Part shown: positions 45,601-48,600 of the stretch, piece by piece
How positions within the stretch are numbered: position 1 is the stretch's first letter
How the letters are laid out: every line of letters starts with the position of its first letter
Position numbers: made by a program
Origin: Escherichia coli
GTDB taxonomy: Bacteria; Pseudomonadota; Gammaproteobacteria; Enterobacterales; Enterobacteriaceae
Assembly (NCBI RefSeq): GCF_016903815.1
Contig: NZ_CP069973.1
DNA length: 64,000 nt
Strand: one strand, 5' to 3'

Positions 45601-48600
45601 ACATCTTCACCTTCGACCAGTGGGGCGTGGAGCTGGGTAAACAACTGGCGAACCGTATTCTGCCAGAGCTGAAAGATGATAAAGAAATCAGCAGCCACGA
45701 TAGCTCGACCAATGGTCTGATTAACCGCTATAAAGCGTGGCGCGGTTAATTAAATAACCTTAATAAAAATGCCGACGTTATGTCGGCATTTTTTATCAGA
45801 TAAATCCCCTTGTCTGTGATTTAACGGAAATCATGCTGTGAGGTTAATCCTAAAATAGATTTTTAATCATGGTTGATTTCGGAAAATACGTAGGATAATT
45901 ATTTTTGATTTCATTTTAACTTTTTGATTTTTAATCTTATTTATATATAAGTTGAAACTTATATTTGATATTCATTCCAATTATCCTAAAACCCCATCGC
46001 TAATTCCCCACACCGTAATTCGCATGCTTTAGTTGTGTATACTCGATCCCGCCCGAAATGTTTTTGGGTAAATCTCCATTCATTCAATGAAGGGAAATTG
46101 TTATGAAAAAAGTTCTGTATGGCATTTTTGCCATATCTGTGCTTGCGGCGACTTCTGCGTGGGCTGCACCTGTACAGGTGGGCGAAGCAGCAGGGTCGGC
46201 AGCAACGTCGGTTTCGGCGGGGAGTTCCTCCGCGACCAGCGTCAGCACCGTAAGCTCGGCGGTGGGTGTCGCGCTCGCGGCAACCGGTGGCGGTGATGGT
46301 TCTAATACCGGGACCACAACAACCACGACCACCAGTACCCAGTAATAAAGTATGTATCCCCAAAATAATTCGAGTTGCAGGAAGGCGACAAGCGAGTGAG
46401 TCCCCGGGAGCATAGATAACTATGTGACCGGGGTGAACGAGTGCGGTCACCGCATCTGCAGCTTGAAGTATGAAGGGGATTAACCATAACCACACTCCGG
46501 TGTGGTTATTCTGCCCCTCTGGAGAAGAGTCGTGAAGCGACCTGCACTCATTCTTATCTGCCTGCTATTACAGGCCTGTTCAGCCACGACTAAAGAGCTG
46601 GGCAATTCACTGTGGGACAGTCTGTTCGGTACACCAGGCGTACAGCTGACGGATGATGATATTCAAAATATGCCCTACGCCAGCCAGTATATGCAGCTTA
46701 ATGGCGGGCCGCAGTTGTTTGTAGTGCTGGCCTTTGCCGAGGATGGGCAACAAAAATGGGTTACTCAGGATCAGGCCACTCTCGTCACACAACATGGTCG
46801 TCTGGTGAAGACTTTGCTTGGCGGCGACAACCTGATTGAAGTGAATAACCTTGCTGCCGACCCGCTGATTAAACCCGCACAAATTGTTGATGGTGCAACC
46901 TGGACGCGCACGATGGGCTGGACCGAGTACCAGCAGGTACGCTACGCCACCGCACGCTCAGTCTTCAAATGGGATGGCACCGATACCGTCAAAGTCGGCA
47001 GCGATGAATCCCCGGTTCGCGTGCTGGACGAAGAAGTCTCCACCGACCAGGCGCGCTGGCATAACCGCTATTGGATCGACAGCGAAGGGCAAATTCGCCA
47101 GTCGGAACAGTATCTCGGCGCGGATTATTTCCCGGTGAAAACCACTCTCATCAAGGCGGCAAAACAATGATTAAACAAACTATTGTCGCATTGATTTTGA
47201 GTGTGGGGGCGTCATCGGTCTTCGCGGCGGGAACCGTCAAGGTATTCAGCAATGGCAGCAGTGAGGCCAAAACGCTGACGGGGGCAGAGCATTTAATCGA
47301 TCTGGTAGGCCAACCACGGCTGGCAAACAGTTGGTGGCCCGGTGCGGTGATTAGCGAAGAGCTGGCAACGGCGGCAGCATTGCGTCAGCAGCAGGCGTTG
47401 CTGACACGGCTGGCAGAACTAGCCGCAGATTCCAGCGCTGACGATGCCGCCGCCATTAACGCCTTACGCCAGCAAATTCAGGCGTTGAAGGTGACGGGCA
47501 GGCAAAAAATCAATCTTGATCCCGATATCGTCCGCGTTGCCGAACGCGCTAACCCACCGTTGCAGGGCAACTACACGCTGTGGGTCGGACCACCGCCGTC
47601 CACGGTCACGTTGTTCGGGCTTATCAGCCGTCCTGGCAAGCAGCCTTTCACTCCAGGTCGCGACGTGGCGAGCTATCTCTCCGGGCAGAACCTGCTTAGC
47701 GGTGCGGATCGCAGCTACGCGTGGGTGGTTTACCCGGACGGACGCACGCAAAAAGCGCCGGTGGCTTACTGGAACAAGCGTCACGTAGAGCCGATGCCCG
47801 GCAGCATTATTTATGTTGGCCTCGCGGACTCCGTCTGGAGTAAGACGCCTGATGCCCTGAACGCCGACATTCTTCAGACTCTGACGCAGCGGATACCTCA
47901 ATAATGAAAAAAAGACATCTGCTTAGCTTACTGGCGCTGGGCATTAGCACAGCTTGCTACGGCGAAACATATCCTGCGCCCATTGGTCCGTCGCAGTCGG
48001 ATTTCGGTGGCGTAGGATTATTACAAACGCCCACCGCGCGCATGGCGCGGGAAGGGGAGTTGAGCCTCAACTATCGCGATAACGATCAGTACCGTTATTA
48101 CTCAGCTTCAGTGCAACTCTTCCCGTGGCTGGAAACAACGCTGCGCTACACCGACGTGCGCACCCGGCAGTACAGCAGCGTCGAAGCGTTCTCTGGTGAT
48201 CAAACGTATAAAGATAAAGCCTTCGATCTCAAACTGCGTTTGTGGGAAGAGAGTTATTGGCTGCCGCAAGTGGCGGTTGGTGCGCGGGATATCGGCGGTA
48301 CGGGGCTGTTTGATGCGGAATATCTTGTTGCCAGCAAAGCCTGGGGGCCGTTCGATTTCACGCTCGGCCTGGGATGGGGATATCTGGGCACCAGCGGTAA
48401 CGTGAAAAATCCGCTCTGTTCAGCCAGTGACAAATATTGCTATCGCGATAACAGCTACAAACAGGCGGGATCTATCGACGGTAGCCAGATGTTCCACGGT
48501 CCTGCCTCACTGTTTGGCGGCGTGGAATACCAGACGCCCTGGCAACCGCTGCGCCTGAAACTGGAGTATGAAGGCAATAATTATCAGCAGGATTTTGCCG

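Follow-up and report, generated by a model that had tools for sequence, protein, structure and literature searches.

The 64-kb window analysed here, which is the whole stretch of E. coli DNA under study, contains lysC–pgi–yjbEFGH. The pgi stop codon at 45749 and the yjbE ATG at 46103 border a 353-bp intergenic region, most of which is covered by a stretch (45800-46102) directly 5' of yjbE that a preliminary description had singled out for its AT-richness; the position is as described. Synteny of pgi-yjbE-yjbF-yjbG-yjbH is kept across 80 Enterobacteriaceae loci (features in Table 1). That yjbEFGH is an Rcs-regulated exopolysaccharide locus was rightly stated and already known: the operon has been reported to be activated by RcsA-RcsB, its induction of ~50-fold accompanies that of the Rcs regulon, it covaries with rcsA/wca over 1035 transcriptomes, and its upstream region is annotated with two RcsAB sites and one IHF site. 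The region is an ordinary one, whose locus, Rcs dependence, and RcsAB and IHF sites already stand in the literature and databases, and its significance beyond housekeeping is small. Our comparative map resolves candidate sites for RcsAB and IHF to the base and adds a conserved proximal half-site.

Table 1. Features of the pgi–yjbE intergenic region and the start of yjbE, in window coordinates unless K-12 is named; centres are given relative to the putative yjbE start site.
Feature	Position	Strand	Remarks
STnc430 (Rfam RF02053), predicted enterobacterial sRNA	45758..45906	-	full-length match
pgi intrinsic terminator hairpin, arms AAAAATGCCGAC / GTCGGCATTTTT	45765..45793	.	perfect 12-nt inverted repeat
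Distal RcsAB-box-like site 1, TGAGGTTAATCCTA	45839..45852	+	centre ~-204.5
Distal RcsAB-box-like site 2, TCGGAAAATACGTA	45879..45892	+	family consensus TAGGAATATACGGA; centre ~-164.5
AT-rich core / spacer	45895..45975	.	12.3% GC; composition conserved, sequence not
Two TTTTGATTT copies	45903-45911, 45922-45930	+	19 bp apart; motif of the preliminary description
-10-like hexamer TAAAAT	45913..45918	-	presumed promoter of predicted STnc430; TATAAT in many genera
IHF core match AATCAAAAAGTTA	45917..45929	-	consensus WATCAANNNNTTR; centre ~-127
Perfect palindrome ATATAAGTT-GA-AACTTATAT	45945..45964	.	contains TAAGTTGAAACTTA; E. coli sequences only
Proximal conserved site TTCCAATTATCCTAAAA	45975..45991	+	TCCTA half-site centred ~-64
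Invariant block TTGTGTATACTCGA	46032..46045	+	putative yjbE -10 TATACT at 46038-46043
5'UTR hairpin 1 (CCCGAA…TTTTGGG)	46051..46069	+	RNAalifold consensus, 67 sequences; also in MFE fold
5'UTR hairpin 2 (UCC-A-UUCA … UGAA-G-GGA)	46075..46095	+	in MFE fold
yjbE CDS	46103..46345	+	80 aa; signal peptide, rest Ser/Thr/Gly/Ala-rich
K-12 equivalents of site 1, site 2, IHF match, proximal half-site and -10	4235642-4235655; 4235682-4235695; 4235720-4235732; 4235786-4235794; 4235841-4235846 (K-12)		window coordinate + 4,189,803

Base composition varies along the intergenic region. GC is 31.0% over 45800-46102 (94 G/C bases in 303 bp), 19% over the 141 bp at 45850-45990, and 41% over 45976-46102; it falls lowest in the 81-bp AT core, which, set against a window mean of 51.6%, is the GC minimum of the 64 kb at the 80-, 100- and 140-bp scale. 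The statement that about 300 bp are almost devoid of G/C was therefore too strong. The string quoted with that statement, ATTTTTGATTTCATTTTAACTTTTTGATTTTTAATC, is present at 45901-45936. The spacer also holds small ORFs of 26, 27 and 23 aa, in sequence that is poorly conserved or has a non-coding pattern. On the pgi side, the terminator stem shows 86% pairing across 43 species and compensatory changes in 7/8 pairs, and A/T runs on both sides of the hairpin make it potentially bidirectional.

The preliminary description had further drawn attention to repeats, phased A/T tracts and intrinsic curvature. TTTTGATTT occurs exactly twice in the AT-rich region and four times in the whole window, where 1.1 occurrences are expected, and at this base composition a repeat of such length lies close to chance: exact direct repeats in the AT-rich segment reach 10-11 nt at most, compared with 8.3-8.5 nt in dinucleotide shuffles (p = 0.08-0.17). 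Only the TGA of the second copy is conserved in other genera; this copy overlaps a conserved element and the first does not. With the longest-repeat test non-significant and the first copy unconserved, we rejected TTTTGATTT as a functional repeat. Nor are the tracts phased: for periods between 10 and 11.5 bp the Fourier power of AA/TT showed no excess over dinucleotide shuffles (p = 0.1-0.9), and the T-tract centres, at 45904, 45915.5, 45923 and 45930, have spacings of 11.5, 7.5 and 7. Curvature was predicted with a Bolshoy/Trifonov-type dinucleotide wedge model and bend-angle profiles, with manually entered parameters and a control of phased A6 tracts that gave the expected behaviour. The curvature peak of 0.36 (98.7th percentile) lies at 45988, outside the core, which itself scores 0.09-0.26, and the predicted bend over 60-140 bp reaches the 88th-96th percentile of the window but stays below the mean of same-composition shuffles; intrinsic curvature finds no support in the model. 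Two further candidates were discarded: the palindrome at 45945-45964, considered as an RcsAB box on account of its TAAGTTGAAACTTA, has low information content and is confined to E. coli among the sequences compared (found in 4/4 other E. coli, missing from E. whittamii and all other genera), and the inverted repeat TAGGATAATT/AATTATCCTA, considered as paired sites, has a left arm that is unconserved even in K-12.

Alignment of the region from 76 Enterobacteriaceae sequences, with spacing and spacer GC measured in 70 species, gave a footprint in which high conservation is confined to the columns of the two distal sites, the proximal ATCCTAAAA, a TAA…TGA core, the -10 block and the 5'UTR. Conservation thus falls on RcsAB-like boxes to either side of the AT core and on an IHF-like core within it, and not on the TTTTGATTT repeats. 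Between this strain and K-12 the conserved blocks differ by 0-1 substitutions and the flanking boxes by 0%, with site 1 identical and the proximal site unchanged, while the AT core differs by 13.4%. The equivalent spacer averages 21.5% GC (8.8-30%) in the 70 species.

In the literature, the RcsAB/RcsB box is given as a 14-bp pseudo-palindrome, TaAGaatatTCctA or TN(G/A)GAN4TC(T/C)NA, with a lower-affinity variant, TN(G/A)GAN4(A/C)CTNA. Site 1 carries the upstream region's highest information content (76 sequences), its conserved block runs on to 45855 (…TCCTAAAA), and it resembles rcsA's own box TAAGGATTATCCGAAAAAT, the AAAA extension included. It is the sole match to T-N-R-G-N5-T-C-N-N-A in the pgi–yjbE intergenic region, and its minus strand, TAGGATTAACCTCA, matches TNRGAN4MCTNA exactly. 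So loose a core is common (25 matches in the 64-kb window, 51 expected), and a motif match by itself therefore carries no weight. In orthologous promoters, site 1 ranks at the top for information content together with the left half of site 2 (76 sequences), in positions that are fixed or quantised. That left half, T[AC][AG]GA, is kept in nearly all species, whereas the right half, ACGNA, departs from TCYNA, leaving site 2 one mismatch off the variant motif. At the proximal site only the right half (TCCTA) fits, the left half departing from the RcsAB consensus, and its ATCCTAAAA (45983-45991) is an exact 9-nt repeat of site 1 sequence, 136 bp downstream of site 1. The boxes probably correspond to the annotated RcsAB and IHF sites, with which they agree in count and kind only.

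The IHF-type match lies inside the AT core. The consensus has five matches in the 64 kb, that at 45917-45929 among them, and its 5' flank (45930-45945) consists of A/T only. Within the AT core, conservation across the 76 sequences peaks at a TG (45925-26) and a TAA (45917-19) of this putative site, although the TAA is equally accounted for by a minus-strand -10 hexamer. An exact consensus stands at the same offset in about one third of species, and K-12 is one mismatch off. The accessible literature yielded no report that yjbE expression depends on IHF.

Downstream, the TTGTGTATACTCGA block is identical in 25/26 aligned sequences and has the highest information content of the region. Judging from this block and the hairpin that follows, transcription would start at ~46050. 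We found no recognisable -35 for yjbE and no sigma-70 -35/-10 pair over the scan threshold on either strand, as expected for an activator-dependent promoter. One yjbE promoter is located here, compared with two mentioned in the literature. In the 5'UTR, the pairs of hairpin 1 survive through C-G / U-G / U-A exchanges, with no pair broken in more than 3/67 sequences; the 3' arm of hairpin 2 is the Shine-Dalgarno sequence AAGGGA, and none of its 7 pairs varies in the 67 sequences, which leaves covariation uninformative either way. Elsewhere, a Reg-Seq preprint names yjbE solely on motif score, as a candidate for an osmotic activator not yet identified, and RyhB ribosome profiling lists a weak and unverified change for it; in the Salmonella RcsB regulon paper yjbEFGH appears in the reference list only, and the supplements of the FNR paper do not list yjbE.

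The distances between these elements are bimodal, without intermediates, in the 70 species. Site 1 and site 2 lie 31 or 41-42 bp apart (with a single outlier at 51 bp), site 2 and the proximal site 91-96 or 103-106 bp, and the distal site and the -10 are separated by 177-178, 187-191 or 199-202 bp; the AT spacer itself measures 77-82 or 89-92 bp. The proximal TC[CT][GT]AAA precedes TATACT by 53-55 bp in 62/70 species and by 42-43 bp in the other 8. Spacer length thus changes only in steps of ~11 bp, an indication that helical phase is constrained. Against this, the phylogenetic relatedness of the species makes the independent ~11-bp indel events few, roughly 3-5, and in the Superficieibacter group (L027/L031) the spacing is off by ~25 bp and the proximal site is absent.

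Taken with the published RcsA dependence, these observations make it probable that the AT-rich stretch controls the yjbEFGH exopolysaccharide operon in cis, with an RcsAB and IHF architecture. The promoter would be of sigma-70 type, having a good -10 (TATACT) but no usable -35, and would need the RcsA-RcsB activator, which would bind the two far-upstream box-like sites at about -205 and -165 from the putative start and may bind the proximal half-site at about -64 as well. The extreme AT tract would serve as an architectural spacer with an IHF-type bending site on the minus strand; changes of about one helical turn in its length would keep the distal sites on the helix face of the proximal site and of polymerase, and the distal activator complex would meet the promoter as this flexible spacer bends or loops. 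Deletion of the pgi-yjbE region has been reported to abolish a dip in ParB ChIP-seq that does not depend on transcription, a sign of stable protein occupancy at a specific site. More tentatively, and as a possibility we would rate below even, the inverted distal RcsAB sites, the IHF bend and the proximal RcsB-type half-site could form one looped complex across a phase-locked spacer, in which case selection would allow only whole-turn (~11-bp) indels anywhere between -205 and the -10 hexamer. Whole-turn spacing over this interval makes a looping or same-face model of long-range RcsAB activation directly testable.

The preliminary description had taken the tract for an H-NS-silenced promoter. 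On that account AT-rich, supposedly curved DNA would nucleate H-NS and silence yjbEFGH, with RcsAB acting mainly as an anti-silencer, which we consider unlikely. H-NS silences AT-rich or curved promoters such as proU, bgl and rcsA, and that rcsA is itself silenced in this way counts for H-NS here; yjbE likewise is very AT-rich upstream, stress-induced and normally silent. The AT core, the window's most AT-rich DNA, has the high A+T typical of such promoters, its composition and not its sequence is conserved in the 70 species, as a protein reading composition or shape would select, and ParB exclusion independent of transcription fits stable occupancy by H-NS as well. Short H-NS regions (<1 kb) do exist and are enriched upstream of operons, according to the same paper that gives 1.5-1.8 kb as the average, compared with which the AT tract of ~140 bp is short. 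In contrast to an H-NS-silenced curved promoter, yjbE has no A-tract phasing, and its predicted curvature and bend are unexceptional; the annotated sites at yjbEFGH are for RcsAB and IHF and none is for H-NS, no link of H-NS or hns to yjbE was found in the searchable literature, and simple coating by H-NS does not predict indels limited to ~11-bp quanta. Silencing by H-NS and activation through an RcsAB and IHF architecture are compatible, and neither excludes the other. That the stretch is nothing more than ordinary AT-rich intergenic DNA with chance low-complexity repeats is hardly credible: intergenic DNA is usually richer in A/T, a duplication such as that of TTTTGATTT can arise by chance at this composition and the core evolves fast in sequence, but the lowest GC in 64 kb, a composition kept in 70 species, discrete invariant blocks with quantised spacer lengths, documented regulator sites and occupancy in vivo all speak against it.

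The distal blocks might alternatively belong to a divergent small RNA, STnc430, running on the minus strand from 45906 to 45758, with a promoter in the AT core, whose AT-richness would then be promoter or UP-element DNA, and an end at the pgi terminator. RF02053 has homology here over the full model (covariance-model match of 85 bits, gathering score 47), in the location, orientation and flanking genes of the Salmonella pgi/yjbE candidate; a minus-strand TANNNT is held in place at the presumed -10 in most of 43 species, a minus-strand T-run follows the terminator hairpin at the predicted end, and the fold has a z-score of -3.2. That z-score advantage derives from the terminator, however, and the source study placed STnc430 among its class V (bioinformatic) candidates, with 0 reads in either cDNA library and a Northern entry of 'np'; no later mention was found in the searchable literature. 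RNAalifold gave essentially no consensus structure (-0.7 kcal/mol), and the Rfam stems are 69.0% paired, compared with 69.1% in shuffles (43 species), helix 1 being 45% paired and the variable pairs of helix 2 mostly broken. We rejected STnc430 as a structured sRNA, covariation being absent outside the terminator (43 species). The sigma-70 scan found no -35 partner for the minus-strand hexamer, and ATCCTAAAA has a second copy beyond the predicted RNA, whose distance to the yjbE -10 is fixed, which suits a protein site and not an RNA. We therefore give the small RNA little chance of explaining the distal blocks: the conserved parts of this predicted family, whose secondary structure lacks covariation support, are better read as DNA sites, and the Rfam family probably models conserved protein-binding DNA and the pgi terminator, not a structured sRNA. 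As a weaker addition to the RcsAB and IHF architecture, a divergent STnc430 transcript might start in the spacer and cross the RcsAB sites, coupling the two.

The RcsAB and IHF architecture proposed for yjbE has close relatives. In IHF-assisted long-range activation, IHF bends the DNA that separates upstream activator sites from the promoter; at yjbE an IHF consensus likewise falls between distal activator sites and core promoter, in a region with one annotated IHF site and helical-phase-constrained spacing. The RcsAB promoters of rcsA and wza (colanic acid) share regulator and regulon with yjbE, and their RcsAB boxes (Wehland & Bernhard 2000) have the core of yjbE site 1 (TGAGGTTAATCCTAAAA), T-N-R-G-N5-T-C-N-N-A, in common (rcsA TAAGGATTATCCGAAAAA, wza TAAGAAATATCGCA). 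Both rcsA and yjbE have an RcsAB box far upstream, at -264 from the ATG, and wza has a TCCTAAAA(A)CC motif downstream of its box, as at yjbE. Unlike rcsA and wza, yjbE combines two inverted distal box-like sites with a proximal half-site, across a spacer of 80-90 bp that has ~12-20% GC and contains an IHF-type core, and whereas wza has a JUMPstart/ops element (GGCGGTAG), the short yjbE leader (~53 nt) has none. In contrast to the IHF-assisted systems compared, the yjbE promoter looks sigma-70/sigma-S-like (TATACT) and not sigma-54.

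We conclude that the AT-rich DNA upstream of yjbE (45800-46102) is a genuine but unremarkable feature, namely the already known regulatory region of yjbEFGH, controlled by RcsAB and IHF. A 701-bp query around it matched 5,416 of 5,426 complete E. coli genomes, with the annotation pgi / yjbE ("exopolysaccharide production protein YjbE"), so the feature is most of the 353-bp pgi-yjbE intergenic region. The yjbEFGH genes are activated by RcsA-RcsB (PMC5461412; PMC5651002) and are among those most strongly induced on Rcs triggering, with osmotic induction and a negative effect of RpoS also reported (PMC3599342). 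In a compendium of 1035 samples they group with rcsA and wca. The preliminary description of an Rcs-regulated exopolysaccharide locus is thus borne out. A ParB ChIP-seq dip at pgi-yjbE persists in rifampicin and in stationary phase, and is lost when a kanamycin cassette replaces the region. Our additions are modest: we map the conserved sites at base resolution, add a proximal half-site as a third site, describe a constraint of the spacing to whole helical turns, and give evidence that the Rfam family STnc430 probably does not represent a structured RNA.

The region had also been described as almost devoid of G/C over about 300 bp, with repeated motifs, phased A/T tracts and intrinsic curvature. 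The depletion holds for about 80-140 bp but not for the full length, which is 31% GC (94 G/C bases); GC is 19% over 45850-45990, 41% in the promoter-proximal half (45976-46102), and 12.3% over the AT core (45895-45975), where the 64 kb (mean 51.6%) reach their minimum for windows of 80, 100 and 140 bp alike. The quoted sequence lies at 45901-45936 and TTTTGATTT does occur twice, 19 bp apart, but 8-17% of dinucleotide shuffles reach the length of the longest exact repeat of the AT tract (10-11 nt), so repetition is not clearly above low-complexity chance. Phasing was not seen: AA/TT power does not stand out at periods of 10-11.5 bp (p = 0.1-0.9), and T-tract centres are 11.5, 7.5 and 7 bp apart. 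Curvature is likewise unsupported by a dinucleotide wedge model that ranked controls as expected (phased A6 tracts 0.60, unphased tracts 0.24, random sequence 0.13): the AT core has an unremarkable local curvature of 0.09-0.26 (window mean 0.14, 99th percentile 0.37), the regional maximum (0.36 at 45988) lies outside it, and over 60-140 bp the DNA bends less than the same-composition shuffle mean (35.5° vs 58.8 ± 19.5°), ranking at the 88th-96th percentile within the window. A second very AT-rich intergenic stretch (18214-18400, 15-18% GC) holds TTTTGATTT (18310), an IHF core consensus (18267) and ATCCGAAAA (18392, minus strand).

A YjbF probe yielded 80 loci, one per species, across Enterobacteriaceae, nearly all with pgi-yjbE-yjbF synteny. 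In upstream alignments of 26 representatives and of a larger set of 76 sequences, separate conserved blocks stand out from AT-rich DNA that is otherwise little conserved. Blocks i, iv, v and vi are free of substitutions between this strain and K-12, as against 13.4% in the AT core and 1.6-3.6% in the flanking genes.

Genes of the locus and conserved blocks upstream of yjbE
Feature	Coordinates	Remarks
lysC	within window	minus strand
pgi	44094-45749	
yjbE	46103-46345	
yjbF, yjbG, yjbH	within window	with yjbE
Block (i)	45839-45855	TGAGGTTAATCCTAAAA; conserved in alignments
Block (ii)	45877-45892	TTTCGGAAAATACG; family consensus TTTTAGGAATATACGGA
Block (iii)	45917-19, 45925-27	TAA and TGA, inside AT core
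Block (iv)	45977-45992	CCAATTATCCTAAAAC
Block (v)	46032-46045	TTGTGTATACTCGA; near-invariant
Block (vi)		entire 5'UTR of yjbE

Within the spacer, block (i) alone fits the RcsAB/RcsB core T-N-R-G-N5-T-C-N-N-A (consensus from PMC7913699), and its minus strand fits TN(G/A)GAN4(A/C)CTNA exactly. Matches to the loose core pattern are frequent across the window (25, with 51 expected), so the weight of block (i) comes from its conservation and its likeness to the K-12 rcsA upstream box TAAGGATTATCCGAAAAAT, AAAA tail included. In block (ii) the left half is good (T[AC][AG]GA) and the right half deviates; block (iv), the proximal site, holds an exact second copy of ATCCTAAAA, 136 bp downstream of its counterpart in block (i). 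A perfect match to the IHF core consensus, AATCAAAAAGTTA (45917-45929, minus strand), spans block (iii); it has an A/T-only 5' flank and is one of five matches in 64 kb. The footprint agrees in kind and number with the annotated sites, two for RcsAB and one for IHF, and was reached independently; we infer that the two sets pair one to one. The palindrome ATATAAGTT-GA-AACTTATAT (45945-45964), perfect over 9+9 bases, was dropped as an RcsAB box, being present in all E. coli sequences compared and in no other species, E. whittamii included; it may be a lineage-specific regulator site.

Spacings measured relative to TATACT in 70 species take discrete values: 31 or 41-42 bp from the distal half-site to site 2, in block (ii) (one 51-bp outlier), 91-96 or 103-106 bp from site 2 to the proximal site, 42-43 or 53-55 bp from the proximal site to the -10, and 177-178, 187-191 or 199-202 bp from the distal half-site to the -10. 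No intermediate values occurred among these species; the Superficieibacter lineage (L027/L031) departs from the pattern. Indels of about one helical turn arose independently in each of three intervals and in different lineages (Escherichia/Kluyvera; Pluralibacter, Silvania and others; the Citrobacter freundii group), and, from site 2 to the proximal site, the spacer holds its GC at 8.8-30% (mean 21.5%) while its sequence drifts. Judged from these alignments, quantised spacing with kept composition is the signature of a face-of-helix constraint across a deformable spacer. Silencing by H-NS had also been proposed; the AT-richness would make H-NS binding plausible, but a simple coating model predicts neither the curvature result nor the quantised spacing. 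Our literature search found no link of H-NS or hns to yjbE; in an H-NS ChIP-seq study, bound regions average 1.5-1.8 kb, with a short minority enriched upstream of operons. The AT core is most likely a bendable, phase-constrained spacer bearing a predicted IHF site.

Block (v) holds a good -10, TATACT (46038-46043), for which a promoter scan found no acceptable -35, the pattern expected of an activator-dependent promoter. Transcription would start near 46050, placing a conserved stem-loop at the extreme 5' end of the mRNA. Two hairpins are conserved in the 5'UTR: one (46051-46069) keeps its pairing through C-G/U-G/U-A exchanges (67 sequences), and the other (46075-46095) is invariant and sequesters the Shine-Dalgarno AAGGGA in the predicted fold, which suggests translational control or mRNA stabilisation.

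On the minus strand, 45906→45758 matches Rfam RF02053, STnc430 (85 bits; gathering score 47), a family built on a candidate from the pgi/yjbE spacer of Salmonella. That candidate is listed as a prediction (evidence class V), had 0 reads in either cDNA library, and has "np" as its Northern entry. STnc430 is probably not a structured RNA: RNAalifold gives no consensus fold over 43 species (-0.7 kcal/mol), and Rfam's stems have 69.0% paired cells vs 69.1% in shuffles, their invariant pairs being uninformative and their variable pairs mostly broken. Covariation is confined to the pgi terminator, which also explains a favourable single-sequence z-score of -3.2. The "stem" is the inverted pair TCC[TG]AAAA / TTTT[AC][AG]GA, the strong halves of site 1 (in block i) and site 2, which vary independently, as protein half-sites would. 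A divergent transcription start inside the AT core may nevertheless exist, as a minus-strand -10-like hexamer (45913-45918; TAAAAT, or TATAAT in many genera) is conserved in most genera. Since this hexamer shares bases with the TTR of the IHF consensus, any divergent initiation would have to compete with IHF binding.

A small palindrome, TTATCAGATAA (45793-45803), comes immediately after the pgi terminator and is kept in several genera, with a moderately conserved TTGTC behind it. K-12 and BL21-derived strains carry a ~145-bp REP/BIME-type palindromic element directly after the pgi stop (L001, a comparison locus, 1551-1695); it is missing here (insertion point 45749/45750), making the intergenic region 353 bp vs 498 bp in those strains. 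Ec-U4-19 (L003 1568-2273; 100% identity to the window) has a 705-bp IS200C copy at ~45762-45767, just before the pgi terminator hairpin and upstream of every yjbE regulatory element. Seven species (L017, L047, L050, L055, L056, L062, L066) have ~2 kb of GC-normal DNA between pgi and yjbE and keep the distal RcsAB-like site and all downstream, so the insert lies just upstream of site 1. The yjbE-yjbF spacer holds a dispersed repeat (46354-46480) with weak Rfam matches to V_AS5, Ysr49 and CssrA, which looks ERIC/IRU-like when set against the ERIC consensus. E. coli genomes carry it in a median of 3 places, and only 909 of 5,426, Nissle 1917 among them, have it in full at this position; the spacer is 73 bases shorter in K-12 than in the window and ~63 bp in other genera.
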